Shown: in pieces, positions 21,201 through 55,798 of the stretch
How positions within the stretch are numbered: the stretch's first letter is position 1
Layout: each line of letters begins with the position of its first letter
Source: Ascidiella aspersa
Lineage: Eukaryota
NCBI GenBank assembly: GCA_963924565.1
Contig: OZ004612.1
Location: 9,114,001 to 9,178,000, forward strand
Direction: 5' to 3'
Length of the DNA: 64,000 nt
The notes under the pieces: generated by a model
The model's database searches: none
What the model was told of the DNA's origin: nothing
What the model saw: the letters and a program-made list of their open reading frames with translations, nothing else
Made by a program: the position numbers and the translations under genes

Positions 21201-23721
21201 ATTGCCAAATTGGGTATCGAAGGCACTTACTTTATGAAGACAACGCTTAGCTTTCCAATAATAGTATTGTTAAGACGCGGGGCTCAACAATAATAATAAT
21301 TCTAACCAAATAAGCAATGATACCACTGATTATGCGGTTTTCTTGTTTCTGTGATTTAATGCAAGCGGCTTTTTCGTTGTATAAGTTTCCTCCCCTAGGA
21401 TTTCCCTTGACCTCTATTAACAAATACAAAAGCGCCGGGTTTAAGTCAATCATAAGAATATAATTTATTAAAATTAATTCGGCCTCCTCTGTAAAATTAG
21501 TTGTGAAGAGTATGGCACAGCCGCGAGCCCTCGCATATTTCCTTTTGCGTTATGGGAACAGCTGAAAAGCGTTTGCCTTTACAAATTTAAACCAGCGGGT
21601 AGAAGGACGTCGGCAAAACACCGAAATCAGGAAATTAACAGTTGTCACTCGGCTATGGGAATTGAAGCGCGCTTGTGTATCTGCTTGGGACTGTGTCGAA
21701 AGAGCAGCGACGCAAGACCCCGAAATGTAACCGCCCCTTCACAGCCGCCAATGTAGGGGCACTTGACACCCCACTCGTCCAATTTGATCTCGACTTGAGT
21801 ATCTTCTACGGTGGCCCATGGCTAAGAAGCAAACTTCTTTAGCGCGAGTTTAGCGTCAGAAACCAGGATTTCGCATAACAACCTATAAACCAGAAAAAAG
21901 GTGTTTCTGCGACTTTCAGAGCGTACCAGGGCATTCTGTTTCTTTTGCAAGTGTTTTTTCTTTCGAATTTGGAGAAAAAGGCGGTAGGGTATGGTTCTAT
22001 GGGAAGAGCCCGGCAATATACCTTTGCGGCCAAATTGCGATTTCGCGGCGGTCGTCGGTGCAGAATGCAATCTGCCGCGGCGCGCCGATGGCTATCGAAG
22101 TCGGACGGCTGAGAAAAAGCCGTTTCTCATCTCCGCGTCTTAATCTCGCCTGTTTAGACTGGCGTCGGGCCGAAACGGCCAGAGATCGAGCTGGCGATAA
22201 AATTTTGATATCCGAACATTGATTAAGGCTGCTGTGAAGCGGCGAGCAGTTATGCGCTTCGAATAATGAGAACACGCTCGTGTACTAGCCAGCCATTAAG
22301 GCGTATTCGCCAAGGGCCATACTGCCAGTTGTGCAAAGCCGTAACATATAGAGGCGGCGCGATTTAATGTAGATTTACCCGATTAAGAGCGTATACGGGC
22401 GCAACAGTTCTTTATCGCTATGCGCTTGGCGACTTTTAATGCGCGCCCGTTGCGGCGTTCTTGTATGCTGCTGACCAACAACGCAGGCGAGGGCAAAACA
22501 AAATGGCTCGCTTTCACTCTCTTCGCTTTGATTGTCTCGTAGACGCAGTGGGACGCGTTGAGTCGGTTTATTTGTTATTTAAGATTAAATTAAGGCATGT
22601 TTGTCCGTGTTATCTAATGATAGATTACAAAATGGCGCATATACACAGTATTTTTTAAGACAGTTTCGTTTAGATGTGATACTTTCTACTGCGAAAGGGT
22701 CATTTATCTGGATTTGCAAAGCAGTAGATTTAAAACAGTATAGCTAATAAACATAAAGATATATAGCAGTATGTTTCGCTTCTCAAAAAAACATTACATT
22801 GAATTTACGCCCTCTTTTGCAGTTATTTCAGTGACGTAGCCTGTTTTTCCTTGAATTTTCTCACTGTTATGAGACACTGACCCGGTCGTGCTTTAGCGAA
22901 GAAAAACAGCATCTGTTTGTGACGTCACAACCGACCTTTTGTTTTCTGAAGTTTTGAACCAAACGGAACAGGAAAGATGATGGTCGGAAACTTAACACAG
23001 GTAAAACATTTTACTAAATGCCCTCCATATGCTTACACACCCATGTTCTAAGAGTGAATTTAATTCAACTAATTATCATTTCTTGACTTTTATTTTTTTT
23101 AATCTAAATTGAAATTTATATAGAAACAATGGTTTTCAAATATGGTATGGAAAATTGCAATTTAGGAAATTCAGGAAAAACACAAAAAAAAATTAAGGAC
23201 ACAAATAGTATTATTTTGTTGTTACACCTGTTTATAACGTGGTTGCAATACGAATATAATTATCAAGGCTTTAGAAAATCGACATTTTTGTGTTTAATGT
23301 GAACAAATGAGAAAATCTTAATGAAAAAATAATATTTATTCTCGGATTAGAGTTTGGTTTATTGATTTAAGCTAAATCACGAACGCTACATAAATAGCAA
23401 CTGAAAATAGGGTTAAAGTGTGTTTCTCTTAAACCGAGCGAGCTTATCCTTCACACATCTTCTTAAAACATGATGAACGATGAATAAATGAGTGGAGACT
23501 ACACTGTTGAATTTTTAAACAACAAATGAATAAAATAGTAGCATCACTTTTCTTGGGTAATTATGTGGCATACATACAACATGTGATTAATATGTACTGG
23601 ACCTTGGTATTGCAAATGGTGGACGAAAAGCGTTTTTTTGTTATTTTACAAATGTAGAAAAAAGTTAATACCATACATTGCCATTCTTCCACTTTTAGTC
23701 TAATTTGGAAGCAATCATCTA

Positions 23722-24061: not shown

Positions 24062-27000
24062 AGCGTACGATGCAGGTAAAATTACAAATCTGGCACGGTC
24101 GACACGTGGTCGCCTAGAATTAATCGCGATTCCGCGTCACAATGGGAGCGCGGTCGGCGAACAATGGCATCTCGAATGTCGGGCGCGGGCAGATGTCCCG
24201 CGAATCACAGGTGACGGAATAATCGCGACGCGAAAACAATAATAATAATAATTCGGGGGGACGGGGTCGCTGCTGGCTTGTGTATTTGATTGGCGCGATT
24301 AGATGTGTTATTCCAGCGGATTTGTTTAAATTTTCGCGCGGCGCCGTCGGATTTACGCGATTAGCGCGCCGCCCGGATTATTTATTCTTTCTTTTTCGTG
24401 TTGTTTTGCGCGCGCGTAATTCGCGAATTAGAGAAACCGGGCCGTTTAGAACTCGATTTAATTCCCCCTCTAAAACTGGGGATTTAATCGGGCCGCCCTG
24501 TGGTTTTAACGTGCCCGACCGCTCGGGATTAATCGAAAGTTCTTTGTCGGTGGCACTTTGGTTAATTGAAGGTGGCTGAATCGATTGCAAGTTGTGTTTG
24601 AGACCAGATGGCTGAAAATGCGGTAAAGTATAAATGCCTAAAGCTGGGTGAATTTTTGGGGCGATTCAGTATTTAAGAGCATACATCCATTCCCGTTATC
24701 GGCCGTGTAACTGGCATATTTACTTAACCCACTGGTACCACAGCGAAGTGCCACTACAAACAGACCTTGGGGTACGCAATGTCTTTTTTATGATAAGTTC
24801 TTTGTTTTTAAATTGAAACCAAAATAAATAGCTTATTCAATTGAAACAAATGCACTAATCTTAATATACTTTACCAGGGTTTTTTTTAGGGGCACTTTTA
24901 CTTTTTATATTACATTTTCAACATGAAACCGTGGTTGACCAAACATGGAATTCAGCTATACAAAATTAAAAAGTTTGGAAACCACCTGATTAGCCCACCA
25001 TTGCTAAAATAAGGAACGCATTGTGTTTTAATTCTACGATACATAGCAAATAGTGTTAAATTTGAAATCCTCCCCCAATGCACTAAAACAGCAGCCTTTA
25101 TCGTCGCCCATATTTCATGTAGTGGCCTTATCGGGCCACGGGAAACCCGAGCTTACAGTTTCAAGAAGCTTTGAGCTTGTTGCATGATGACGCTAATTGT
25201 CGCCGCGCGTCGAACAATCGCCATTGTGACGTGTGACAAGCGCGCATCGCGTCGCATCAGAACGAAGTCGGCCGGCTAGTTAATGGAAGCGATTATCACC
25301 GCAATGAGAAGTGGTGCATAAATCGAGCGTGATGTCAATTGGCGAATGCATCCAAGTGCGTGTGTGTGTGTTAGCGTTTGTGTGTGTGCATGTGTACACC
25401 GACAATAGCAAGAGTTCTAGGCTTGACGTCACTAGACTCTTGCAACCGTCTGGACTCGGTCAAGATAATCGAATTTAGAATGGCCGCATATCGCAGCGAC
25501 ATTAAGGGCTCGATATTAAGTAGAGTGTGATGGCTGTTGCATACGGCCCTGCTTTGGCGAGATTGCGGAAGGCCTGATATATATTAGCGCTCTACTACTG
25601 ATTATGTCACAGTGACGTAACAAAGCAGTCGCGATAATGGGGATTTCACTTGTCAGTTGTCTATTGGTTGATGTTAACTGAAAACTTGAAAACACCGATC
25701 AACGATAACCCTAGCGGGAAACACACAAAGTGGTGGTTAAGAACCCAACTGCTAAGACTGCTCTTATAACTCTTGTGTACCTCAGCGATCTTTATTCAAC
25801 TTTTCAATACAAAATGAAATCTATCGTTGACGATGCGTTTACTGCATGGCTTTTATAACCTAATTTGCATTCAGCATACGAAATATTACATAAGGTTACC
25901 GACTAAGATTAATAACCAAAATAAGTGGCCATCGAGCGGTTGTTTGACCAACTTGAACCTTGTGTTGTTTAAGCCGGCACAAAAGCTTTCAGCCAAGTTT
26001 TCAAACCCTCATCGCTAAATAGCGTGTTTCAAGCCATGCATGTATTCACTGCTGTACAGCAGTCCGTCGAAAGGTTTGGGTTAGAGTGGGTTATTCGATA
26101 TCGGGGCCACACAGCACGACGCCATTTTCCATAATGGGGCAAAGAGAAAGTGGGGCCAGCTCTCTCACCCAGGCCACAGCCCCAACAGTGGGGCCCTTTG
26201 CCCCAGCACAGAAACGACTGTGAAAATGGCTGCTGTTGTTCGCGAAATTGATTCGAAACGCAAATGTCAAGTTTCATTTTTCATTTGACTTTAGATTGCC
26301 AAAACAAATGGAGGTTTCGAATTCGCGATCAACCCTTCTTTTATTTCGCTGGGCTCGCGAAATGGGTGAAATAATTCGCTGATTTTAGAGATTTGGTTAC
26401 TCAAAATACCACTGGTTACTCGAAATAGCAAATATATTGCCAAAATATAAAACTGCGATGCCTTGTTTTATTAAAAAAATATTCTTTGCAGTATACAAAT
26501 TAGGGTGTGGGGATAGCTGCGTAAAAAATTGTTTGCAATGTGCGCCAGTTTTGCAAGCTAGGACGCTAAGGATTTAGAAGTTTGTTTTGGAAAAATCTAA
26601 TTTCATTATATTGAAGAAACAGGTTTGACCTTTTAATACACAGTTTTAATCGCGCAGTGTACGGCAATCAAATCAGGAAATAAAAAGAAAAACACTCAAA
26701 CTAACGTAAACATTCAAATCCCGTCCGATACCCGCCCCGCGCGATTTCCTCTGGCGAAATCACGTCACTATCGTCCTGTAAGGTCACAATTAATTAACGC
26801 GCGATCATATCGGCGACGTGTATTCGTCGAGATGCGCCTTCTAACGTTCTCCAGTCGATTCGCCACCCAATTCCACGTCACTGCGATTTTATTGCTGCAG
26901 ACAATTTCGACGCCCCGGCCGTTTATGGACATGTTTATTGCCGACCGACTTCCACACCTTTCCTATGCGAGAATTTGGACGATTCGATTTAAGTACAAAT

Positions 27001-28166
27001 CTGACCATGTAAGCTTCGGCGAACCGTGGATGAACATTTCTTTGGCGTTTGTTCAATTCGGGTGTACTTTATTTTTGATTTGCTGCCACACCAAGCGTCA
27101 TGTTACTTAAGTTTTACCCGGGGTGTTTGTTTCGGTATATAACATATCTAAATATTCCTCAACACAAGTTTGAAACTTAAAATCATAGCCAGTTCGAATA
27201 CACAGGTTTAAAAATATAATTCATAATTTCCATTGGGTTTATTGTCTTCATTTATTTTAAAAAGGCATGGTGAAACACTTAAAGAATATTAAGTTTGCTC
27301 CGTACCTTTCTTTGTATTATATTGCATTATATTCGTGCTGGGCCAATGTGAAAAAGACACACAAATAAGGCAATACGTTTACATAACATATTTAATTACC
27401 AAGGTGTTTAGACTATGCTTCTGCAATAATATGCCTTGGCGTAATTCATATTCAAACACATTAAGCTGCCTTTCAGTGATCAAGTTAACCTTAACGTTGT
27501 GGTAAACTTCCTAATTACAGCAACACATATATATGCTCATTTGCATGACTTTACTTTTTTAACAGTTGCAAATTTGCCTGGCCACTATACGGCAGGTTGC
27601 ATTCCGCCAAGACGCCCCTTTATGCGTTTTTAGTGCGTTTAAATGACCAAATTCGATTACAGAAGTCTCCTGTGTCCACCCATGTTTTACTTCAAGTAGA
27701 AACAAAACGCGGAGTCCTTATCCGAAAGCCTTATTACGCGAATTAGTTTCTCGCATCGAGGGAGATCTTCCACCGCGATACGAATTTGATGTCGCGCCGC
27801 TCAATAAACTTGCTCGTTCTCTTAACCCGAAAACTGCCGCCTATACTTGCCGTCGTTCCAGGAAGCCGAGACCGCATTTAATAAACAGTTTTGATATCTC
27901 GATCTGGGCGCTGCACGCGAACAAGATTTTGTAAAGGTCGCTCAGGCCAGCTTCCGATTAAGGCTTCGGCGGCAAGCGGTCATCTTAATTCCCGCGGCTT
28001 GCGGCCCGCGGCGTACCACTAGAATGTTATATGCTGCCGGCTTGTAGCCGAATTTTTGCTGGATGCTTTTCGACTGTCTGTGCAAAGATTAACTGCTTAG
28101 AATAAATGGAGTGAAAGCGATACATGGCATCTGGGTATTCTTACCTTGTCTTGGATCAGTTTAAGC

Positions 28167-28398
28167 CAGTGATTTGCAATATTTTATGGCTTGCGGCACC
28201 CCTTTAAAAATAATAAATAGATTGCGGAACCTCGGTTCAATTTTTGTAAAGTTTCAACTGAATACCCGTACCTGAACAATATTTTCTATCCATTTAATTC
28301 GGCTAGCAGGGAAATGACCAATAACTTGAAATCGCATAAATTGAGTAGACAAGTGGTGTGAACACCTCAGAACACTACGCCAAATTCTCAGAACCGCC
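28167..28398 (+). mobile_element. Degenerate copy of the 'GCGGCACCC' Charlie-type MITE
   Basis: CAGTGATTTGCAA..TTTATGGCTTGCGGCACCCCT..AAAAATAATA is shared with 30476-30530; the 3' end is decayed and approximate. Confidence 0.7.
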
Positions 28399-28470
28399 GT
28401 TGGCTTCTTTCCACATTCGCAATACTTCGAACAACTTACCAAGACCTCAACCTCACTATTTCTTTTCCAG

Positions 28471-29031
28471 GCCAAGTCGGACATCGGAATGGGAGGCAGC
28501 CTTGGTGCTCCCGGTGCCGTCGGCGCGGCTAACATGAAACTCGAGGCAGTGATGGAAAACCTGCAGCGGCAGCACCAGCAGCGCCTTCTCGAGCACCAAC
28601 GCAAGTCGTCGCCCGATGACGTCATCATGGGCGTCGGCGGCGTGGGCAGTGACGTCAGATGCACCCAGGACGACTTCAGCGACGGCTCAGAGCGTCGCCG
28701 CTCCTACTCGGAGTCGCCCAAGGGTGCCATGGCCGACGACTCGGGCGATGATGAGCGACATGACGACAGCGTGACGTCACCGATGGGCATGCTCAAAGAG
28801 GACGATGACGTAAGCTCGGGGGGAAACGAACACCCCCATCACCACATGGGCGAGCGACCCTCGGCGCTTATGGTTCAACAAGTGGCGTTTGCCGCCGCTC
28901 TGGCGCAGAGGTCGTCGCCGGAGGGCGCTGGAGTGCACGGGTCACTGAGCTCTTTGGTGCCGCAAGCGATGCTTCAGTACGGACAGTTCCAAAACAGCAT
29001 CCAGAACATGGACCCCTCACAATTGCCCCAG
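28471..29031 (+). CDS. ARID3: ARID3 exon: N-terminal MKLEAVME motif and acidic low-complexity region
   Basis: Acceptor tttcttttccag ends at 28470; open frame AKSDIG-M(28489)...M(28534)KLEAVMENLQRQ; donor CAG|gtagtt, phase 0. Confidence 0.9.
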
Positions 29032-32000
29032 GTAGTTATACTCCACACTAACTAGATTTTACTTTTAAAATAAACCTTAAAAAACGTATTTTCTTGATAG
29101 GGATGGTCATTAGCTCGTTTTTCAGGTGTTAATCGGAAAATATTTTCTTATCACACTATACTTGACCTTTACAGAACAATTTATCAATTTGCTAGCATAA
29201 TGTGTTTTCAAACATTTCAGCTCATGTGCTTCATGTATACCGTATAGCCGAAAGTTTTAACACATATCTTAACACATCGGCGATTTCCCAAATCCTATTA
29301 AACCGTATTTCAAGGTAAATTAACCTAATGTAAATCTGCCAACTTGCGCGATCGATATTACTACCTATTCCTGGTTATTTCCTGCAGGGCTTTCGCGAGC
29401 TAGCCCTTTTCCAGCAGCAGCAAATGGCACAACGAATGGCAGCCGAAGCTCACAAGAGGATTCAGGAGCAGCAGCAACAACAGCACCAGCAGAATCACCA
29501 ACAGCAAGCGGTGCGGTTTCACCCGTTGTTTTAATTAAAACTATTTGCACTACAGTAATTTTATGACACATTAAACTTGCGTAACAACTGTAATGTTTTG
29601 GATAAAATAATAAGTGACAACTATAGTAGAAGTATGCATAGAGGATTTTTGTCTGTGGTTTTGTTCTTTGTTTGAAAAACAAAAATACATTTTAATTATT
29701 CCAGCTTTGACAATTTAAGACTATAGGTTGCTTATTCCAATCGCTTAATAAACGTTGCAGATGTCATCGCCATAAAACGATTAAAAATAGACTGTTGGAA
29801 AAACATATTATTCAACTGTGTGTTTTAAACTACTTAGCTTTAACTGCAATTAAAATTTCGGTGTTATTTAAAAAAAAATAAGAAAAAAAAAATAAGACTA
29901 ATTCAAACTATGTTCGATTATGGGTAAAATGCATATATTTATGTTTTTGTAGTATTTAATTCGGCTTAAACTGAATATATGTAAAAAGGCTGGTTAAAAT
30001 AGTTTTATTTTAATTCAATTGAGTAAATCTTATAATCCAACCAACAAAATGACTGGCTGCTTTTCATTGTTTATCCAACTCATGCGGCAATCTGGCAAAT
30101 TCATCGGCGTATTAATTTCTCACAACTAAATTTGACACTCGACACACACGAATTTGCCAAATAGAAATCGGCAGATACGATCTCGGCGCGGCGGGATAAT
30201 CTTCAAAAGCAGTTATTGGCAAATAAAACGCCAGATGTTATCAGCCACTAGGAAGTATATGGTCGCTCAGCAAAGCGCGGGTTGCGTTTTAATTTCGCGA
30301 GTGAAGCCTGATAAAATATTAACGGCGCTGTAATTATAATTTGTGAAAGTGTTAAATCAATTTATCTGTGCGGGTGCAAGTAAAATACTTAACATTCGCT
30401 TGGCATCGGTTACTTTGATATTACAGTTCCACCATTTTTCGCGAACTTTCGATGACATTAAACTTCGCCCTAAACCAGTGATTCTTGAACTTTATGGCTT
30501 GCGGCACCCCTCAAAAATAATAGTTAGCTTTCCGGCACTCCGACTGGAATTTCGTTGGTTGGGTGTTTTAATGATATGTCACTGTAAATAGAATTAAACA
30601 ACACAATCAACTTAAAAATGTAGGCAAATATCATTTAATATATTCGTATTTAATAAATATATAGTTAAACAAATAGTTGTATCACGATGCTTACCAATTG
30701 AGCAAAAATCAGATTCTTAAAAATTATCAAATACCTATGGACTCCCTTGAGGCATTAAAAATGGCACACCAGGGCGCCGCGGCACCCCGGTTGAGAACCA
30801 CTGTTCTAAACATATATGTTTTTGTTACGTCAACAATTTTTTAACCTCACAGCAGACCCACCAGGCCCCAGCGTTGCACAACCCTGCGCCCGGCCCCCAC
30901 CACCCTCAGTCCGAGCACTCGTCGGCCAATTCGTCGATGACGTCAAGCGTGACGTCACAGCCCAAGGGGGGCAGCAACGGCGGATCGAGCGCTGGCTCCA
31001 ACCAGCAGGAGTGGACTTACGAAGAGCAGTTTAAACAGGTTTGTGAATTATTTTAACATGTAAATGTGGTTCTTGAATAAAAAGTGTTACGTTTAAAGAA
31101 CTATTATGGGTCATCTAGGCCGCTGGAACTGTTGAAAGACACTTGGGGTTAAAATAGTTATACACAAAATTGTCATTCTTAGCTATTATACTGCTTGGAA
31201 TCAATTAAGATGCCTGTAATTTGCTAATAGGGAACTACAAAAGAATAAGAGAAAACACAGTCATACAACGATCGAAACAATGTTATGCTACAATCGAAAC
31301 ATTCCATTGATCACATTAGGCAAAAATCGTATATTGTATATTTAACACTAAATGAAAACCATGTATGTTCCTGAAATTCAAAAATAGGAGACACTTAAAA
31401 TTAAGAACCCCAGCAATGCCTTTGTTTATGTCACAAGCCAAACGATATGCAGCGTTCACGACTTTCTCCCGTCGCTATCGCTAGCAACCAGCAACAAGCC
31501 GCATCCTCGGCTGTAGAGGACTTGTAAAAATAGCCTTCCTACAAGCGTCGTGCCGATAAGGACAAGCAGACACTATCTGGACGCAAAGCAGGCAAGCGCG
31601 ATTGCAATACATATCGAGCAATCGTATTCGATTTGACACGCGCCATTTCCACTTAAACAGCGGCCTGTCCAAAATGTGGCCTGTCACGTAAAGTTGCTGT
31701 TTAACGAGTGGAATTAAAACACAGCAATTGCAATTAGGTGCTGAGGCATGAAAATTTGGTTGCGCATGCCGCGACAAGTCTCGCGACCGCGAAGTGAGTT
31801 TTAAAAATCAGGTTTAACAACTGCGTGTGGCTTTCTATTTGACTCAGGATAACCACCAAGATAACAAAGAAGCTAAAATAATCCCTGTTTGACAGAAGTG
31901 ATATTTAGCAGTAGAGTTTGTGTTTTTCAAAAACTTATTCTTTTTTTTCTTAACAGTTTATGTTTTAAAATTTTAAAGTTTTTGGTTAACAAATACTGGC

Positions 32001-35000
32001 CAGTAATTTACATTTTTACTCTTCATAGTTGAATCTAATCATATGTTTTACTGTTTCGCTCGGCCTGGCAAGTCGTATTTAAAAACAACTTTTGGGGTCC
32101 ATTTGTTGTTACGCTAAAAGGGGTTTCGATCACTTGCGATTGCTGATTGAAGCGCCCCCAAATCGCCCCCACCCCCACCTTCTAACCTCAAAAGAGAATC
32201 TGACTTAAATTAATTGCCCGGCTGCGAAATTATTCGGCGAATGTCTGCCCCAGGGGGGTGGGGGTGGTTCGACCTCGATTTGGAGCCACTTCAGACGCGG
32301 CGCCGGGGGTACCTTGGGTTGTTCTATGGGGACACAGACACCCTTTTCACCCCCATCCAAGGGGGGGGGGTGTTTCTTCATCCATCGAGAGTTGCAATGA
32401 GGCGTTACGAATAGATAAGAACCTCGCAGGGGATTAGTCCGCTGTGCCCATTGTTTTATCCCTGCTCGTCGTTTGGGAGATGAAAGCTCCTGATATCAAG
32501 CCCAGATTAAATTAGGCGCTCGCTTAAATCAACTCTCGACTGTGTTTTTTGGCCGCAATCCGCATTTTATTTTGACTCCTGTGAAGTGGCCGCTTCTTCG
32601 CATTGCTCGGGTGATTAATCACCGATTTTTTCGTGTGCATTCTGTGGATTATAAGCTGCATTTGAAACTTGCATGACCTACACGTAACTCTATACGCAAT
32701 AAACCACACCTTAATTCCCATTAAATCAACCACGAAAACAAGCTATTGCATTAGCAGCCCTACATTTTTTATAATCGATTTTTTAGCGGCCTGTATTATT
32801 TTGCGCACTCTGTCACTTCGCAATGGGCTTTCTATTTGCGACCTTGTTGCGGTTTAAACGAGCTTCGGTCAAACTGCGGCGGCGAAATCGTTTGAAATCA
32901 GCCGTGGAGCATCGAAATGCGATTTGCCGGCCGGCAAGCGTGCTTTAATTGTTGCGCATTGGCTTATAATTGCGAGGGTCCCGTTGGGACCGAATTGCCG
33001 ATATTGTTTTTATTTGCTGTTTCGCCTCCGAAACACGCGCTTTCGTCCTCGGCGCATATCAAGCTGTCCTTTATCGCGAATGCACAATCAAATCTCGTCA
33101 AATCTAAACGACAGGGCAATAACCCGGACGGAGCCACTAGAATCTGGCGGATTCCGCTCGAATGTGAACAGCAATCGATTTCGACTATTTTTTTGCTCCA
33201 TTTTGTCTTTTTACGCTCTGCTACAGACGCGAATGTTGCATTTGTGTTGAAATTCTTTTTCTTTTGAGTTGTTATGATCTACCGATTCTATTCGTTACAT
33301 CAGACATTTGCTGACCAAAAAAATTAAATTGACTTAAAAAACATTATGAAACATTATGAAAACGAGTTAATAGTCGGAATGTGTAAGTTGTTTCACCCAA
33401 TTAGTTTGCAGAATCGAAGATTCAACCAAACGATTCATCCAAGATTTAACCACTTATGTTATGCGAGTATAAGTAAAACTGGGCACCCAATTCTTGGTAG
33501 TATAAATCTATTCGATAAAACGCGAGAGATGTGCAATTTTCAAACACATGACTCGTCAGAAGAACTCCAAACGATCTTCTTTTTTCCCTGTGTGCAAGTG
33601 CATATGGTTTCAACAAAACCGACGTGAATACGGCGAGAGTTGCAACTTAAAAAATGGAGACGCCTGTCGGAGTTATGCAGTTAGGTGCGGGCACGGACAA
33701 CCGCCGACTCGAAACCATAGCTCACTTCTAACCGGAGTCCATTACTGCCTCGCCAAGCAGGGCACGTGCGACGTGGGGGGGGCATCGTACCCTCGAGTTG
33801 CGCAATTCTTGATTTTCAGCGCAACCCCGCGTAAACATTACGTCACCCCCCCGTTATAGTTACACGTTCTCGAATTTGCGGCGTCCGAAAAGCGGATTAA
33901 ACCTATAGGGAGAGTGTCAGCATGGCCCCCCTCCGGTAAAATACCAACGACGGTCCCTGGACCCTCCGTTCAACTTCCTCTCGATCCAGTGTACATAAAC
34001 TATACGCGGCGAGATAAGGGATCGACTCTATAGCGAGGAGTCCCCCCCACCCCCTTTGCTAAACCCCAAGCCCCCCTAAGGTTCTCCATAAACAAGAAAG
34101 CAGGATTAGCAAAACACGGCGGCCACGGTTCGCCGCTCGAGGGGTCAAGTTCCAGCGCTACCCAGCATCCCGGGGGTTGCGCGACTCCCACAGATCGAGT
34201 TACTCTGATGCCTTCGTCGGACACTTTCGGCCGCTCTCTCTTTCATTTAGCTCCCTTCGAGCAGATCTTACCCCAAGGGGGAGGGGGGTGGGTGGATGCT
34301 GTTGAAAGGGTTAAAAATGAACATACGCTCGACACAGGCGTAGCGTAGGGCGCGTATATGCTATTCGAGAGCGCATCCCGGCCGTTTAGTCATGGGAGAC
34401 TGGCGCAGGAAATGTTTGTTTTACGAAGTTGCGCGCCACTTTAAAAAGACGAACCGGGCTATATGAAGGGTACCCGGCCTTTACGGGATGCCGTCGTTGT
34501 TCTCGTCTATTTTTCAGCAAAATGCAACACCCGCATATTTGCACTTCCACTTGTTTGTTCCCGTGTATAGCTTTCGCCGACGGTCGCTCACCAGTCCGGC
34601 CCTTTTTTGTCTTTTGATTTATTTTAGTTTATGCGCCAGAAACTCGAGCTCAAACATCCTTCAAATATTTCGTCAGGTTTTAGTCCATTTCGCAGTGTTT
34701 CCGATAAACATATGTGCTTAGCGTTGAGCTCATACTGTTTTTTGTTAGGAAAAGGCTCGTTAAAACTTAAAAGTATATACAAACCAATATCACAAATTCT
34801 TGCAATGCTCCAAAAGATTGCGTTAACTATTAAAGTTTGTTTGATAAAGTTGTGGTTCGTTTAATTCAACAAAACTACATGTCAACGAGTTAATATATAC
34901 TGTAATCCTCGTAAAGATGCTGTATAACACCAACGTCAACAACTCACGAAATAGCACCTTATCGACATTACACCCCACGTTCTCCCAAATGTAAGCGCGC

Positions 35001-38000
35001 TGTCTGTCGGATTCGGTCAGTCTTACGTTTGGTTTCCTATCTCCCTGCCAAAAAGAAAATTAATTTTCGGTGTCTTATCATCGACCCTCACCCCTCACCC
35101 TTCAACCCCCGGTTCATTTGCTTTAAACCGCCCCAGATCCCGGATTCGCGTTCGTTTAAAGTCCTCAAGTCGGCATTCCTTGTTATAAGGCGGCATTAAG
35201 TTCAATCTGTCTTCGCTACCCCTTACCCCCGCACCCCTCAAAAAACGAGCGAGAATTAATCTTTACCCACTGCCCCCTACCGTTGGCTCCACGCCAAGCG
35301 CCCCTTGTCGTCCCGGCTACGGGTCACTTGCCAAATGGACATCTTATTTACCCAATATCACACGCCCGAATCGTAACGCAAAGCCCCCCTTGTACTGTTC
35401 GCGTTGCCCGCTTTGGTACACTGCTTTTTTCGTGTTGGCTAATTTGTGCCGCTTTTTGAAAAGCTGCCGAACACAAAACTTATATTTGCTTGCCTGGAAC
35501 TTTTTGCTTGCGCCCAATATGTCATCAGTTCGCTTGATCTCTTGGTTTTTACGTCACACGCGTCTATTTAAAGACATGTTGAGGCGTTTCTTATCTTGTT
35601 GCCGTATTTGTTTTTCCTTGGTAAATAACTTTTCGATTCAAAAAATTCAATCAAACGAGAGCAAATAATATGAAAACGGATAAATTTATTTTAAAGTATT
35701 TAACAAGTCGCACAGTAAAAGTACGCACTACGCACGTATGATATTTGATTCACTTTTATGAGAATCATTTCAAATCGGCTTTTAATTATTACATATCGAC
35801 GTGGCTTTTGGTTTAAACGGCAGCAACAACTACAAATGTTGTGGTTGGTTTGCTGCCCGTCCAGATTTTCTGGGGATAAATTTAAAAATATTGTAGTATT
35901 GTTCGTGTCGGTCTTTTTAGAACAACCTTTGTTTCTGGCGTTTTCTTGATTTCTCCACCTGCCATAAGACCCATTTAATTTGCAGCTGCGTTGTGTATTT
36001 GGGTGAAAGGTAAAGCTTCAATAAATCGATAGACTATCTACAATAGGTGAGGGTTCAACCTATTAAAATCGCAGTTGGATTATCTTATTTAAATGTCGAC
36101 GCAGCTGCTAACAAATAGAAATCATCTTTCACATATTCACTACATCAGATTGTACTAATCTTACAGAGCGTTGCATTGATTGAAGCAGGTGTAACCCCTG
36201 CGGACGTGTGCTTTTAGTTGTATGTGCGCTGGAAAAATCGATATTTTATTATAAAAGATTTCTCAGGTCACCAAAACAAGACCACCTATGCGTGGGGTTA
36301 ATTTAGACATAATTTAGACGGAAGTAGCAATTAGGCGCCTTTCGACTTTTCGACTTTCTCCACATGCATTAATATAATTCCGTCATTTGCTCAGCAGAAT
36401 CAAAACCTTTTCGGGGTATTTTTGTAAACCTTTAAAAACAACGATTTTTTAACTGTTCATTTTCTCATTGAGCGCTAAGGAGTTTTGTTTTATTAAGCGA
36501 AACATCCCGCAATAGCAAACACCCAAAATACATCGTTTCCAAAACTCCAAAAAAAATTTAGCGAAAAAAGTAAAAAGAAATCGCGCGTACGGTGCAGCTG
36601 GCAGGAGGTTGCGTGCTTCCCAGGGCGTCTCGAGTGACCTTGGAGGTCAAATGACCAGATCACCTGTTGACCTTATGTCCTGAAAACAGTGGACAGACGC
36701 CGACTGACCGGATATTAAAACTTTTGCCAGCACGCCAGCTTTAATTGGGGGTCAAAGGTGTCAGGGGGTGCACTGACCAGCCGACAGTGCCTGGGTGCTT
36801 TGTAACCCGACCCCACATAACAAGACGAACCCCTGGGTCAATAAAACCAGACCCCGAATGGAGTCTAGTAGGGGACGTGTGCGCCCAAAACTGGACACGG
36901 AGTTTACCAAAGATGGCTTGGAAATAGTCGCTGGGTGATAATTTTTGTGAAGGGTGGTTTGGTTTGAATGTAATTAAAAATTGACCAGCGAACTTTTATA
37001 TAAAATTCAAACTGTCTCAAAAGTTTGCTACGCTTGAATAATGAGTAGTGTTTTCATTAAGCCGCCCCCTTAAACTATTTTATTGCTCGCTGTAAAATGT
37101 GCCACAACAAAATCCATGCCTTCATCAGTCGCACGAATTTGTTGACTTATTTTTTATAGTTATGTAAAATAAAACGCTATCTATACGCAAATCTCATTTG
37201 CTGTATATGCACATCAAATATCAAAACTTCGAAGCTTAAATTAAAACTATATCTACTCTTCGCAACGTAAAATTGCAGGGCTGCTTTTAAAAGCTATTTG
37301 CGGGGTTTATAAATGTCGTAAATCACTTAAAATGCGTTTCTACTAGTGGGACGCGTTGTGCAACGATATTGCACAGCGAGATTTTCTCGTAAATTGCTCG
37401 TAAAGACCCGACATGAGTTCCAACGCTGCATTGCCGTTTGTTCCGCCAATCAGCGGGCGCGCCGTAAAATGGCCATTGTGACGCTTGAACGGGCACTGTG
37501 ACGATGACCGACCGGGGCAGCTGGCGCGAAATCGACCCACTGCACTGGACACAGAAATGCAGCAAAACGCGCAAATTATTGCGCAATAAGCGATTCGGTC
37601 GCCGCAGGGGGGCGCTGTGGTCGATTGGCTTTGATGCGGCCAAAACGCCCCAATCGCTTTACCAGGGGGGTGGGGGAATTAAAAATTCATAAGCGGCCGA
37701 CAGGGATGGGGCGCGAAATCAGATTCGCGATTTGTAAGCGAATTGGCTACATAATAGAGAGCGCGCGCGCTTGTGTTTATGTTCGTTTTTTGTCTGTACC
37801 ACCTGCATTTTGTCGCGCCATCACTTATTCATGGCGCGATTGGCGAAAAATCGACCGGCCGGTGATCGCGCATCAATAATGCACGCGCGTACACAGGCCG
37901 CATTCGAATGCGACACTTCAATACATCGGCGCCACAAATTTACCGCCGCGGGGTTTGGGCCTCCCTTTTCCAGCAAAACCGCGCGCAGAGCACCGGGCCT

Positions 38001-41000
38001 TAATTGCGTCGGCGCGCGCGAAACGCCATCACTTATTTATGTTTCAATTTCGCTGAAATAAGCGCCGATCGCGCCCCCGCTTAAAGACCCCCTATAACCC
38101 GCGAAAGCTGCCCGCCGCGCCGTATAAACTCAATTATTAATGGGCGGCGTCTGATTGCCCGAAATTCGCGCGCGCCCGCTTTGTTTTTTCGCGTTGGCGT
38201 CGCAAATGGCCGCATCCGGCAAGCGTTAGTGGAAGCCCGCTTGGCAGCAGCGTTCAAAGAAAAGCAGGTAAACTGTGACGCATCTGCTGATTTGCGGTCG
38301 GCGAAATTGGATTGGCCGCCGTGCGCGAAAATCGGGCGCTATCGTGGTCGCGGACTGAAGCCTGTACACTCTCTTGGGGAGATTGGCGGAAATTTTTTTT
38401 TCGGAAACGCTATTGCGAAGAGCGCAGCGAAGAGCGCAGCGAATGACCTGTATCGTGAGAAATTTCGCGCACATTTGAAAAAAAAGCGGCTAAATATATG
38501 TGAACGGGGCTTCGCTGCGTTGATATCTAAGTGGCCCCGAAGAAATGGGTCTAATGGCCTGGGGCATACGCGGCCGACCGGGCGTGGCCCCTCCAACTTG
38601 TGTCGCCGATGTGTCTGTAAGCTTTACGCGAATTTCGTTATTTACGTTCGCCGGTCTTGAGCGAGACGAACGAGAAAGCTTTTCGGCTCGAACGACATTA
38701 TTTTTAATCGTGACAATGTCGCCGTTTGATCGCCGAAAGCGAATGTTGACGTTTTTCGCGGCTTCCATTCAAGCGGCTGCGGTGTTTAACCTTTGAGGCA
38801 AGCACAGGTGTTGCGCGTGTATTCCAGCGGCTGTAAAAAGTAAACAAAAAACGCCATCAGAGGCGGCAAGCGGCGCTTTACTCACACCCCTAAAAATGTC
38901 AACAGGAAAGCGAAAACCGAGGGGATTTCACACGTTTTAGCGTCTCCCTTTATTTCGACTATTTTAAGATAGCGCGTCGCACTTGTCGAATCACACTTTA
39001 TTCTATATGGCGCGTTGTACAGATAACTTAATTTCGAAGAGCAAAGTAAATTGGAGGGGGCAGAGAGAACATTTTATGGGGCAACTCAAATATATTGGTG
39101 TAACTAAAAGATGATGACCAAATCACTGCACAGGTTGCCAAACAAAAACGAACAAAAAAACGCTGGTCGAAATTTATTTTAAGCTAACGTAATTAGGTAC
39201 ATCATAGTCAGTTGGAAAATATACTATAGGGCAGGATTTTGCAATCTTTTTTCGCTAGCGGCACCCATACAGAAGTGATTAACTGCAACGTTACAATAAA
39301 CGATATTGAAACAGCACATTAACTGTGCAACAACGTTGAAAAACCCTTAATTTTTTGCACTTTTGTCGTACAAAAAAAATTGTATATAGTAGCTTACCAA
39401 TAGAGCAAAAATTGGATTCCTAAAGAATTTGAAATATCTCTCGGAAGCCTTGAGCGTTAAAAATGATACCCGAGAATGCCGCTGCACACCGGGGGGGGGG
39501 GGGGAACCACTAAACTAGGAGTACCTTATTTTTCTTGAAAACTCACAAAGCAGGAAGGAGCATTGCGCAATTGTACAAGATGGTCGCCTCGCAATTCATT
39601 CCAACGCAGTCGGGTAGTTATGGGGGGGGGGGGGGTATATAAGGGAGGCCCGCCTCGATACAGGAGGCTCTTATGTCGCGCGATTCGTCGTTTCGAGAGA
39701 CATCACAAAGCACTCGAGCCCACAGATGTTCAGCCTCGTATGCGTGCGTGTGTATGTGTGCGTGTGCTCCTAAGGGGTTTAAATAAGGGGGTAGGGGGGC
39801 CTTATAACTTTTATCATCAAGTTGGGCCGCGCCCCGGATCGATAAGTTGCCATTGTGTGGCGAACGGCCGACGGTCACTCTCGCCGATTCGAGTGGCGAT
39901 TTCGACGGGACTCGACGTTCTTTCTGCCTCCTCCTCGATCGCTCAACACTTTCGCCTCGGATATTGATCGAAATTAAGTGTCCGACTCTAAACTTTAGCG
40001 CTGCGCTGCGGCGCAAAACAATTAATGCTCTGGCTGCCTATACAAGTATTCAGTTATCCCTCCCCCTATAGCTCTTACAAGTGCGCGCGCGTGTGTGTTT
40101 TATTTAGCCCTCCTTTGTCCGACCGGGAGACTAAATTTAATTGAAACACTGAGGGTGCTGGGCGCGCAGGCGGCCCACGCTGTTTTTTGCTGTTTTGTGG
40201 TTAGTAAAATTTTGTATATATATAGTTAGAATTCCTCTTTTGCCAGAAAAAAAAGCGCCAGAAAACAACTGTTTTCATAAAAGTAAAACATCTTGTAGTA
40301 TGTTGAAAAGCAAAAACTTAAGAACAATACCTATCACATTCTAATACATTAACTACTCTTCGTCTAATAAGCTTATACTTACCTGCGGTTTTTATCTAAT
40401 TTAATTACACGAGTGCACAAGCCTTGCCATTAACGCGAAATCTCTAATGCATTCGTTCATTAGAAGCGAATCCCGATAGTTTGATTTGGACCTATCGTGG
40501 CAAACTAATGAATTAATTGCGGCCAATGCAATCACGACGTTGGAATTAGGCCGTGTGCATCACGTGTACCACTGTCAATCTTTACCAGCAATGCGCATCT
40601 TATTATCCATTGGACAGTTTATAATTAGTTAACACTAACAATTAAATATAATTGTAATACATTGAAAATGTTTTAAATCACACACAATCGTCTAAATCGC
40701 ATTTTTAACAAAACTTACAAATAAGAAATTTCCTTGGTCAACTGAATTGGTTACTAAACGGTTAAAAATGTATAAAAGTTTCAGTTGTCAATTTTAAAGA
40801 TTTTCAATAGTAATTGTTCTCCGTGTCAAATTAGTGATTTGTGCAGCATCATATATGGTTGAAAGAAAACGTAAACTTAAAGGGCGAAACAGGCCTCTGT
40901 GTAAGCGACCTTTTAAGTTTTCGGCCAGATGTAATTAATCTCGTTGAGAAGGCCTCGAAAACACTTTTTCCCGCTTTTTTCTTCGTTTTTTTCTTATTGC

Positions 41001-44000
41001 GGAAGAAACGTGGGCTATTTGCGGCCGCGGCAAACGGGCCACTTAGGGCTCTTCCTAATCGACGACAGCGATTGTCGACGCAACAAAGAGCGACAATCGA
41101 CTGACAAGGAATGCCCGCGACATTGTGACGTCACAACCCGAGCGGCACTCGATGATTTAATTAAGTTCGCGGCAGCGATGCCTTCGTAATTTTAAGGGGA
41201 GTAGCAAATAACACGAGTAGCAAATAACGCGTCAAGCGTTGAGCGCGTGGGCAGCTTTTTAATCTGTATAGTATGGTTCGTTGGGTTGCTATTTTTCTTC
41301 CATTTTTGCACGGGTAAAATGCTTAAACGTTAAAGCATACCCAGGCAAATAAAGATGATTAATAGACCGAGTGTTTGTTTCAAAAATAATTATACTGTTA
41401 CTCACCAAAAAAAAGCAAAAACAACAACAGACGGCTCTTTTCTTAATGTCCACAATCAGACCCATTTATCAATAACCCTTTTCAATCTCAGTTCTTCAAC
41501 ATAACTTACCGTCAATAAATGTAGAAATAAAAGCAATTGTACATAAAACAGCAAACAACTTATTTAAATTGCCATGTCGGCCGAAAGAACAATTAATTAA
41601 TGTATTATCTTTAAGGGTTATACATTTTTTATCCTTGATTTGAAACCCCTTCTCAAATGCAAAATAAGGAGAAAAGAATGATGGCTCATAAGCGTTCAGT
41701 TGTAAGTGAACAGCTTAAAACTTAAGAATACATTCTAAATATTGTTCAACCATTATGACGTGATAATGCATGTTGTTCATTGGAACGTTGGAACAATAAT
41801 AAGTCCTCCCTTTGTATTGCAGTTGTATGAGATCGACGCCGACTTCGGACGCAAGGAATTCTTGGACGAGCTCTTCAGCTTCATGCAGAAGCGAGGTAAG
41901 AAATCTCTTGTGTTGCATTTTAAAGTCAGCCCACCAAGCGTTTGACGCAATAATTTGCGATAATTTTGGGGCTGAAAAAGGGTACGTACGCTATGGGCTT
42001 AACGTACGCTAAGTTACAAGTTTTATCAATTCACTTTGCTTGCCGTTTAAAACCACTGTCATTGCTTCATATCTGCATTATTAGCTTTAAATATATAACT
42101 AAAGCACATCTTAAAATTCGGGGCAAGTCAATAAAAAATGACTTTAATAGTGTGTTGTAAAATTTATTCACTTAAGGATACGTGGTCTTGTGACTTTACA
42201 AACTTTAAACACACAATTGGTCGAGATCATGCTAGACATCAGTAAACAAGTCGAAAAACCGGCACAAAACAAAATATTGTGTTGAAGACCCATGGCCTGA
42301 CATAATATGACGTCACAAACGGGCCAGAGCTTGCCGAAAATAAACCCATTTATAGCAAAGCCGAATCTGGCTGTCACGGATAAAGTCATTCGCCTTACGC
42401 GTGTACCCATGTGCGGAAAAGCCGCCCAGAAATTACATCGCAACAATTTCGGCCCCAGAGATTTGATCGCTGCGATTTTTTCCGCCCCAACGATCACCCT
42501 CGGGTCCCGGATTAGAGTCGAATTTCGAGGGGGCAGATCGGATAAAAATCTAACCCCGTCGCCGATGTTCGACGACATGTGGAAGATTAATCTTCGAGCC
42601 CGCGCCAAGTCAAGTAAAAACATAAAAAATTCAAGCCTTTGGGCCTCTAAAAGGTTTCCTCTGGATTTCGCATGGCTGCTTCCACGCGGCTCAGCAATCT
42701 AACCTTGGACCGCACCGGCAGCCTGTATTTGTTCAGGGGCTGCGAAATGTGTGTTAACAGTTTTTTTTCGTCTATTTTCTTGCCTCGCCGCGGCGCATAA
42801 TTGCCCGTGATCGCTCCACGCTTATATGCTCGCCCGTGTTTTTACCACGCGTTCCAAACCGAACGCCGGGCATTGCACAATAGGACTACCCAATAAAAAA
42901 ATCTTTTTCACAACTCTAAATTAAAATGGCGCAAAATTCACACCAAGAAACTAAAAAACTATTTAAAAATTTTTCTCTGAAAATTTTGATAAAAAGTAAA
43001 TTTACATTTTTATTCTTCGCCTTGTAAAAAGCCACCTTCTTTGACGAATCCCTGTGGAGGCCTAAAACTTGACAGTTTTTAAATTGCCACACTTTCAACC
43101 GTCCACAGTGCTTTAAAAGGTCTCGCCACTTATACTTGGCCGGGGATGGCGTCGGGGTGAAAATATAACTCGAGACGAAAGTCGTTTGAAGAGCCCACGA
43201 CTGTATGAACTAACGACATCGAATATTTCCCGCTCTCTTCTTTTCGTTTCGCATTTACCTTTATGCGGCCGTATTACGTCAGAGCGGCGAAATTTTCGAG
43301 CTTCTGCGGCGTCTTCTCGTCACGCGAAATGGGTTTCCGCTTTTCAGCAGGGGGGAGGGGTAGGGGGTAAGTTATGGCGAAAAACACGATGAAAGTGTGT
43401 GTTTTTGCGCTGAAGCGAGTAAGCCTGCTGCTGGCCCGGGCGTATTGCATAATGTGTCTTTTAATAGGAATTTATCTAACAAACATAATTTTGACGGCTT
43501 AATTTGTGATTTTTGAAAACGTTTAACTTCTGAGGTAAATATTGCAGAATGTTTTTTTAAAATAGCCACTTATGAAAAAAGCATTAATAAATTTGGCGAA
43601 TTTAATTGTGATTTTCAGAAAGTATTATTTTGAACTACGGGGTGGAAAAAAATAATAAAAAGTGGTTAACCGCCGTTAAACCCCCCTTTATTTCTAAATG
43701 TAGAATTTACACCAAGACTTACCCTTGTTACGTAAATGTTAAAAACCGATAAACTTTAGCTAAACGCGTCGCGAAAGTCACCGGTTAGTTTTGTGGTCTA
43801 CCGCACCACTTTGTAACACGGGCCGCCACACCAATGTAAACAGAAGGTGTGACGTCACAGGAAAATCGCAAACAGACAGGGGACTCCCCCCTGGGTTGTG
43901 TGGGAATTCTCGCACAAGTCTCTTTGTTTGCATTAGCGCCATCAATATTGCAGCACCTTGTTTGGACAGTCGGAAGCAACAGTTTGCCGACAAGACCTCT

Positions 44001-53557: not shown

Positions 53558-54155
53558 TCTGCCTGGCGCCACCTACCGCTCGCTAACCACCTCGGCGTCG
53601 ATCCGCTAAAGGGCGCTACCGAGCTGCAGCGCTCCGAGTTGGAGCTCTGCCGCCGCGCGCCTTATCGCCACCGTGTGGGCACTTTTGACTTTTTCGCGCG
53701 TGAACCAGTGTACACATATCTATTGTTCTCGTTGTTATTATTTTACCCCACTTTCTCGAGCGTTTGCCGTGTTTGATTTCTATTTTCGGTGCTTTTAATG
53801 TCTCGTTTATGTCGTTTTTTTTTTTTGGACGACGACAGCGTTGACAACGCGAGTGACGTCAAGTTTGCGTTCTCGAATGTTACGTAACGACCTATCAGTG
53901 TTGGTGCACGGGTGTTTTAAAACATCATGTGCGCGATGCTTAGTCTTTAACTGCAGCGATTTACCAATAAACTACTTTAAATAAAACACCTTACGAAAAA
54001 TAGCACATTTTAACTGGTTAGTTTTGTTTTTTAGGCATTTGTAGCTAAATTAGTCTTACTAAATACAACACCTGCCGAATAATTGCCACTATTATTATTC
54101 GGTGACGTCATGATGATGCGTATGACGTCATCGGCCGTTTTCCCACGGCACGGAA

Positions 54156-55592: not shown

Positions 55593-55798
55593 TTAAAAAT
55601 TGGTGGACTGGGTTCTGCTGTTGTATTTGATCGCCGGAATCGAAGGTTTTGGGCGATTTCTGGCTGGAGGCAAAACTAGCTTTCTCCGTATGGTGGCGTT
55701 CTGGAAGCAGTAGAAGAAGAACACGGCCACGCCCTGCAGCCCGTTGACTGACGTGTGGACGTACGTCAGAACCTCTGACGTCATCTCGTCGCCGAGAC
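55593..55798 (-). CDS. Adhesion GPCR last exon: TM7 and short C-tail
   Basis: acgtcacag|GT CTC acceptor; NGLQGVAVFFFYCFQN; TAA stop. Confidence 0.92.

Follow-up and report, generated by a model that had tools for sequence, protein, structure and literature searches.

The window analysed here is a stretch of 64,000 nucleotides from the ascidian Ascidiella aspersa (G000:C6:9114001-9178000; genome size 308.6 Mb). It holds an ascidian dead ringer/ARID3 gene, the N-terminal coding exons of which carry several copies of an 8-bp palindrome, TGACGTCA. The word is in excess at these exons, in the window as a whole and in the genome.

The gene was modelled as 13 exons encoding 640 residues, with AG/GT ends and without an internal stop. 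Its true start codon lies in a small upstream exon (22977..23000, forward strand) encoding MMVGNLTQ, and not at the ATG at 28489; this first coding exon matches the N-termini of the orthologues, is followed directly by a GT donor and completes the 640-residue frame. Exon 2 (28471..29031) encodes an N-terminal region that is acidic and rich in Ser, and contains four motif sites; exon 3 (29388..29510) is Gln-rich and has no motif; and exon 4 (30853..31038), rich in His and Ser, carries two sites whose starts are 12 nt apart. All three are on the forward strand with AG/GT ends and an open frame, and they total 870 nt, or 852 nt counted from the ATG at 28489. Further downstream on the same strand are the ARID-domain exons (41823-41895, 48419-48602 and 50086-50199; span 41823..50199) and the C-terminal exons (50555..53557). 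A protein search with exon 2 matched only ascidian dead ringer/ARID3 (5 matches among 1,856 candidates). The best relative was Phallusia mammillata at 59%, and the dead ringer proteins of Phallusia, Clavelina and Ciona ranged from 49 to 59%. No reads of RNA run X8 fell on exons 1-4 in the approximately 6% of the run examined, and the exon model therefore rests on splice sites and orthologues. Two long introns in 31039-48418 (10.8 and 6.5 kb) have a CpG observed/expected ratio (o/e) of about 1.2-1.4 and GC-rich patches, and are likely to be regulatory DNA.

A preliminary description of this DNA had placed five perfect copies of TGACGTCA and one variant, TGACGTAA, in the N-terminal coding sequence of ARID3. 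All six are in place and in frame, in exons 2 and 4 only, and the span given for them, 28617..30957, takes in two introns. In exon 2, TGACGTCA is read as GAT GAC GTC ATC (DDVI) at 28617..28624, where DDV is invariant in 7/7 rows of the orthologue alignment; as AGT GAC GTC AGA (SDVR) at 28650..28657, with DVR also found in Clavelina and both Ciona; and as GTG ACG TCA (VTSP) at 28772..28779, where both Ciona carry MTSP. The TGACGTAA variant lies in GAT GAC GTA AGC (DDVS) at 28806..28813, and here the orthologues have DDDV followed by T, I, M or P. The two sites of exon 4 are ATG ACG TCA (MTSS) at 30938..30945, where Phallusia shows MSS and which is likely a gain in this lineage, and GTG ACG TCA (VTSQ) at 30950..30957, where the orthologues read MTSQ, VTSQ, VTSQ and ITSQ.

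The window holds 18 perfect TGACGTCA against 0.70 expected, and 100 shuffles reach 4 at most. The copies sit in introns, exons and downstream DNA. One lies in the 5' leader or promoter of ARID3 (22920..22927), 57 nt upstream of the start codon, five are intronic (25424, 41126, 42308, 43850 and 44114; span 25424..44121), and three follow the stop codon (53854, 54103 and 54123; span 53854..54130). Another, also reported before and present just inside the last exon of a neighbouring secretin/adhesion-type G protein-coupled receptor (GPCR) gene on the minus strand, is read as ATG ACG TCA (MTSE) at 55776..55783; the preceding exon has a 7tm_2 match. The CpG o/e is 1.11 in the 4 kb around the ARID3 sites and 0.97-1.39 over the window, which is a proxy for methylation only.

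Four splice acceptors in the window end in (A/T)CGTCACAG or CGTCACACAG (51793-51803, 52797-52807, 51206-51217 and, on the minus strand, ~55800-55810), and at these the right half of TGACGTCA is fused with the acceptor. CGTCACAG showed no enrichment in the non-repeat DNA of the genome sample described below after removal of full sites (0.93). A different word, ACTTAAGT, occurs 18 times in the window, within a GACTTGACTTAAGTCA-rich repeat clustered at ~62.6-63.3 kb; its positions include 12838, 13214, 18157, 53110, 53388, 56203 and 62309-63334.

Codon choice and peptides at coding sites

The ARID3 protein has eight places where the peptide is compatible with the motif. Five of these encode TGACGTCA and seven carry TGACGT; the two in the C-terminal exons (LTS and NDVS) have the full motif in neither. 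When synonymous codons were shuffled 100,000 times, the maximum was three motifs and no shuffle reached four, and shuffling the codon order of the first 290 codons gave at most two motifs in 100,000. Shuffled coding sequence thus gives far fewer motifs than the real one, and because the synonymous shuffles never exceed three, the signal in ARID3 is one of the DNA and not of the peptide, as the preliminary description had proposed. Its own argument for this, that the palindrome is read in two reading frames, turned out to be worthless, because the third frame reads a TGA stop and the word is palindromic, so that two frames are the maximum. Both open frames carry the motif across genes. The absence of the motif from the ARID exons is likewise true, and the contrast drawn from it is uninformative; the absence is forced, because no peptide there could encode the motif.

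Motif use at compatible sites was examined in two further gene sets. One was a random sample of 1.4 Mb (28 blocks of 50 kb from nine large contigs), in which frames were scored by a self-trained coding model. Of these frames 143 held a compatible peptide and 138 were scanned with Pfam, five frames of more than 700 residues being left out; 24 host-gene frames were kept at a Pfam match E of ≤0.001, a few of them under Pfam's own cut-off. The coding model was retrained on motif-bearing segments and a slight bias towards motifs is possible. Its raw counts (29 against 2.9) were put aside in favour of the Pfam-confirmed frames, because the model mixes in non-coding frames. Inside the Pfam matches the motif was found at 7/20 compatible sites (0.69 expected), or at 8/24 with 15 flanking residues included. 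The families with motif sites were ankyrin, CS, AAA-lid, TH1 (two sites), TGF-beta propeptide, acyltransferase and a weak DOMON match, and the TH1 exon with two motifs is covered by stranded RNA reads. Transposon-type frames had the motif at 1/8 sites. The second and independent set was picked by family (18 bZIP, 30 forkhead, 30 GPCR and 28 homeodomain loci), with frame ends trimmed by rule, so that a few sites may be non-coding; the motif was found at 13/43 sites outside domains (1.04 expected) and at 1/11 inside (0.21 expected). With both sets pooled, Pfam-domain sites carry the motif at 8/31 (0.9 expected). The motif is therefore not confined to low-complexity sequence. It had been suggested that a DNA code shapes unconstrained protein; the shaping of residues appears real, and the limit to unconstrained sequence fails at the 7 of 20 Pfam sites in use.

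ARID3 stands out from these other genes. Its N-terminal sites carry the motif in 5/6 cases against 13/43 elsewhere (1.0 expected there; p=0.011), and five motifs in 870 nt correspond to ~14 times the density of 39-43 per 100 kb in other non-domain coding DNA. Other local clusters were also found, with five sites in a forkhead (Fox) locus, L173, and four in the frame L143, which has no Pfam match.

Searches with single peptide patterns gave mixed results. An acidic DDV pattern had the motif in 4/7 cases and the pattern SS[MV]TSP in 14/19 after repeat collapse, both in agreement with the above; neither is counted as proof, because their coding status is unverified. The ankyrin pattern GADVN did not set the motif apart from its control (2/20 cases against 0/10, hand count; 30 real and 17 reversed-control matches), and one acidic-peptide pattern search gave a single match, without the motif.

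The peptides themselves were counted as well. Outside domains, in 11,129 residues only, [MV]TS occurs 18 times against 6.2 expected (2.9-fold) and LTS 11 times against 5.3. The top-scoring segments of the random sample showed no excess of compatible peptides (25 against 26.8). In seven ascidian ARID3 N-termini there are 32 compatible peptides where 6.3 are expected, although most of them are the same sites by homology, whereas 105 non-ascidian ARID3 N-termini, nearly all vertebrate, show no excess (36 against 51.5; 8 proteins without anchors were skipped). The peptide positions are common to Phallusia, Clavelina and Ciona, and the named ascidian orthologues mostly keep the peptides. The residue that follows DV is one whose codon can start with A (I, M, T, N, S or R) at 17/21 ascidian sites compared with 11/35 in other animals. 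Furthermore, V and M interchange before TS among the ascidian orthologues, and the swaps at both kinds of site all fit the DNA word. That chemically unlike residues with a common first base replace each other indicates a cause at the DNA level, and a force on the DNA appears to shape the residues.

The word across the genome

The whole genome contains 32,742 RTGACGTCAY compared with 1,236 matches to the reversed control (26-fold), or approximately one copy per 9.4 kb, including introns, repeats and coding exons, and GTGACGTCAC occurs 4,981 times against 230. The random sample contains 185 copies of TGACGTCA, an observed/expected ratio (O/E) of 14.3 under a dinucleotide model and 7.8 under a third-order model; 96 of these lie outside repeats, which were identified by self-comparison, and the O/E in non-repeat DNA is 10.7 (dinucleotide model). 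CpG-poor tiles have 2.5 copies per 100 kb, compared with 7-13 in the other tiles, and the O/E is 5.7-13 in every class. Close pairs are frequent, as 15/174 spacings are ≤50 nt with 1.8 expected.

The enrichment is specific to the full word. Among single-base changes, the G>T variant TTACGTCA is enriched 3.1-fold (overall range 2.3-3.1-fold) and the rest 0.6-2.0-fold. TTACGTAA is enriched 2.7-fold, the half-site TGACGT only 1.14-fold after removal of full sites, and the AP-1 word TGACTCA not at all (0.9-fold). TGACGTCA is flanked by a purine before and a pyrimidine after. A full-site consensus, R/Y flanks and tolerance of TTACGTCA are known preferences of bZIP proteins, and the shape of the word fits a bZIP dimer that would require the full site. 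The genome has 18 bZIP matches (PF00170), which judging by eye from their basic regions we take to be Jun-, Fos-, CREB1-, CREB3-, ATF4- and XBP1-like. Two CREB1-like basic-zipper exons, L151 and L152, lie ~330 bp apart (C5:15765031-15765489) and are a candidate reader of the word; they may be alternative DNA-binding exons as in vertebrate CREM.

Among the 256 palindromic 8-mers, only ATAT repeats and TAGGCCTA approach the enrichment of TGACGTCA. TAGGCCTA is 7.4-fold enriched (56 copies in the non-repeat DNA of L001-L140), with its non-palindromic variants TAGCCTAC and GTAGGCTA at ~4-fold, and may be a second hyper-abundant word.

Several repeats carry the word. A 312-bp element bounded by terminal inverted repeats of the CAGGGG type has two TGACGTCA 13 nt apart (L049:7026-7361; L258-L287) and gave 3,546 first-look candidates in the genome; it resembles a miniature inverted-repeat transposable element of the hAT type. 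A second short repeat of ~100 bp (22 copies in 1.46 Mb; window ~5131-5246; L101:838-935) has one TGACGTCA and several TCGG/ATCG units. In addition, a tandem duplication of ~5.8 kb in the block L011-L012 (~C2:3009200-3019200) has about eight TGACGTCA per copy.

Explanations for the excess

We suggest, at what we judge to be an even chance, that the excess of TGACGTCA results from weak genome-wide selection for CREB/ATF-type (bZIP) sites that spills over into coding DNA. This explanation is favoured because codon choice, the genome-wide excess, the shape of the word, the close pairs, the CpG-density pattern, the residue exchanges among the orthologues and the presence of bZIP genes all count for it. 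In support of a function of such sites, mutation of CRE (cAMP response element) sites in two Ciona muscle promoters impairs reporter expression (PMC6589888). A bZIP dimer would bind the full, unmethylated site, and each site would be slightly beneficial, most plausibly through open or unmethylated chromatin and not as one gene-specific switch. Where the protein permits [MVL]TS, or xDV followed by an A-starting codon, synonymous changes would complete the site, in folded domains too. In loosely constrained stretches amino-acid changes would also complete it, raising MTS and VTS and holding these peptides in place. Where the force lapses, as in the orthologue L288 described below, sites would decay and most peptides would drift. 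As judged from the sequence, TGACGTCA is likely kept as a predicted CREB/ATF-type binding site and likely steers local amino acids, and the front end of ARID3 is a dense and likely ancestral cluster of candidate bZIP sites.

A number of observations weigh against weak genome-wide selection. In the EGF pattern C-x-D-V-N-E-C the motif is used as often as in the control (4/30 and 4/31; a hand count among the 100 of 104 matches listed, with 28 near-identical array copies taken as one and 7 and 5 rows discarded for incompatible residues). At coding sites alone the CpG contrast (0/8 against 22/70, our own count) is not significant. The peptide excess that the preliminary description had named as a check is seen for [MV]TS, whereas the DV frame is indistinct from its controls: it occurs 14 times against 8.4 expected, yet DV followed by a non-A codon is in excess as well (25 against 15.9), as is the reversed control ST[MV] (10 against 5.9). 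In old repeat copies, with the seeds excluded, motif columns show fewer differences than expected, 54 against 69-76 (ratio 0.71-0.78), which counts in favour of selection, but this conservation is weak and is equalled by 9-20% of background windows; young copies are also weakly conserved, with 9 differences against 11.3. Protection of the motif CpG from deamination was looked for in repeats and was not found, 7/36 being decayed compared with 25/118 other CpGs. In Ciona, a CREB-like site is described as dispensable in one enhancer and the motif as often lying outside minimal enhancers (PMC11001920).

A comparison at the level of the DNA comes from the metagenome loci L288-L290, which represent one ascidian-like ARID3 orthologue (56% to exon 2 of the window, 63% to Phallusia). 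L288 is the sole orthologue compared as DNA (one species, 6.5 kb). It has kept none of the six motif sites, with gene frames intact in the exons covered, which also speaks against selection for the word. The DDVI site reads TGACATCA (DDII), a CpG transition product, and the SDVR site TGACACGA (DTR). At the VTSP site, TTACGTCG, VTSP is retained without the motif, and at the DDVS site, TGACGTAG, DDDV is retained without it. In exon 4, aligned by eye, MTS has become ISS and VTSQ has become TTTQ. The retention of peptides after loss of the motif, which the preliminary description had named as a refutation of its idea, is seen for VTSP and DDDV and not for the other four peptides, which changed. 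No motif-family site occurs in the 6.5 kb of L288-L290 (p ~0.03 at the rate of the window). Third positions at the former sites match the window in 7/9 codons compared with 32/88 elsewhere (p=0.028), as would be expected if the motif sites were ancestral. The evidence from L288 cuts both ways: peptides drifted after the motif was lost, yet the gene tolerates the loss.

A non-adaptive drive is a rival explanation. Here the bound protein would shield its site from mutation or meiotic breaks, and the allele would be kept or copied by gene conversion without any benefit. Molecular drive is a discussed explanation of bacterial uptake sequences, and in yeast factor-bound DNA resists cutting by Spo11. 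That sites are found wherever the sequence permits, in housekeeping domains (NSF-like AAA, TH1/NELF, acyltransferase), introns and transposons, and that L288 lost its sites while its frames stayed intact, is what a drive would predict. Shielding from deamination cannot make the excess, however, because motif CpGs in repeats decay like other CpGs, and the O/E remains 9-13 in CpG-rich tiles after dinucleotide correction. A general mutation shield also looks too small, the substitution ratio of 0.71-0.78 in repeats being far below a tenfold effect, and the strong local clusters (five sites in ARID3, five in Fox L173 and four in the L143 frame) suggest local value. We regard drive as a somewhat unlikely cause. 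A particular form of it, an animal counterpart of bacterial uptake sequences or HIP1 in which a germline-bound bZIP protein biases repair or conversion towards its own site, so that TGACGTCA would spread in unmethylated ascidian DNA and rewrite MTS, VTS and DDV, seems improbable to us. Another rival is a gene-specific exonic enhancer, in which the six sites would be an ancestral CRE cluster regulating ARID3, beyond the genomic background. The ~14-fold density, the use of five of six sites (p=0.011), the peptide positions common to Phallusia, Clavelina and Ciona and the extra site 57 nt before the start codon fit this, but like clusters occur in unrelated genes, L288 lost all sites, and the sites in housekeeping domains are left unexplained. 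As the explanation of the excess an exonic enhancer is unlikely, and it can coexist with weak selection throughout the genome.

The remaining possibilities have far less chance. Transposon seeding, by which mobile elements carrying the motif scattered the word and the coding copies would be remnants, draws on the 89 of 185 sample copies that lie in repeats (30% of the sample) and on the 312-bp element with its two copies. Against it, the repeat mask (built from 1.46 Mb only, so that rarer repeats are missed) covers none of the 18 window copies, coding or otherwise, and the O/E of 10.7 persists in non-repeat DNA. Sites that lie in conserved domains, or at positions common to distant ascidians, cannot have come from recent insertion, and seeding is very improbable. 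It is just as improbable that selection is for DDV and TSP/TSQ as peptides, such as kinase sites, with the DNA word as a by-product. The peptides are conserved in the named ascidians, and VTSP and DDDV outlast the motif in L288, but codon choice is left unexplained, four of six peptides changed in L288, and the non-ascidian ARID3 proteins show 36 against 51.5. As the sole cause, selection on the protein is ruled out by the synonymous shuffle, although some additional constraint from it is possible at the TSP and DDDV sites. A palindrome-perfecting mutation (template switching) or local slippage is barely conceivable as the source of the word. In its favour are the palindromic form of the word, the frequency of close pairs and the 7.4-fold enrichment of TAGGCCTA, but few of the 256 palindromic 8-mers come near, the non-palindromic TTACGTCA is enriched, and flanks vary between copies.

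Beside these results, the array of 28 near-identical EGF-containing gene copies noted above lies at G000:C7:2369563-5535588, with the copies 50-140 kb apart.

Known systems and implications

The ascidian word is identical to the 8-mer of the CRE bound by CREB/ATF/Jun bZIP proteins, and is alike in its R/Y flanks and in its tolerance of TTACGTCA. Unlike the CRE as usually known, the copies of this putative binding site lie in introns, repeats and coding exons and not mainly in promoters. The one motif enriched among Ciona notochord enhancers is reported to be TRTGACGTCA, of which a single 1.8-kb region has 10 copies (PMC11001920). Ciona is described as being without the vertebrate bias of the CRE towards transcription starts (PMC1796609), and CREB sites have been found in constitutively open elements at one locus (PMC6952182). 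A link of CRE-like words to Ciona methylation was looked for and not found in passages of PMC3827831, and passages of PMC11240583 likewise had nothing on the subject. No report of a genome-wide CRE excess in ascidian coding DNA was found in what was mainly the open literature.

There are bacterial parallels as well. Uptake sequences of Haemophilus and Neisseria are described as accumulating in coding DNA, approximately doubling the peptides they encode and preferring poorly conserved positions (PMC2817400). This resembles the 2.9-fold rise of [MV]TS outside domains. The ascidian is, however, an animal without transformation machinery, and its word is a palindromic transcription-factor word that is rarer in CpG-poor DNA. 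HIP1 of cyanobacteria (GCGATCGC) is likewise an 8-bp CpG palindrome, 15- to 300-fold enriched within and between genes, and selection and biased repair are debated as its cause (PMC5861425). The ascidian word is 11- to 26-fold enriched; it is another word, in another domain of life. HIP1 sites are periodic and are shared between genomes, whereas the named ascidian orthologues of ARID3 mostly keep compatible peptides and the one orthologue compared as DNA has lost all six sites. Exonic transcription-factor sites within codons have been reported to be commoner in loops than in helices and strands (bioRxiv 10.1101/2021.09.06.459186). As with such duons or exonic enhancers, the ascidian sites lie in translated exons and codon choice is constrained beyond the needs of the protein. 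In duons many factors and predicted modules share the signal, whereas here it is one word with a synonymous excess of about tenfold, and no footprint data are needed to see it. The word thus behaves both like HIP1 and uptake sequences and like duons, with a putative role as CRE or exonic enhancer.

The DNA-level signal is real and is broader than the low-complexity region of ARID3. Constraint by transcription-factor sites on codons and proteins has been hard to demonstrate in animals, because many factors usually contribute to the signal; here it comes from a single word. Among ascidians there are model species, reporter assays are easy and population data are public, and the word seems to have gone from ARID3 in at least one lineage. 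The excess of one word in a model group that includes a lineage with apparent loss makes selection and drive directly testable. If drive by a germline bZIP protein were true, lineages like that of L288 would have switched the drive off and would be a natural experiment. For those working with ascidian sequences, motif scans of enhancers will return the CRE as background, and a DDV or MTS peptide conserved in a disordered region is not necessarily a protein motif.

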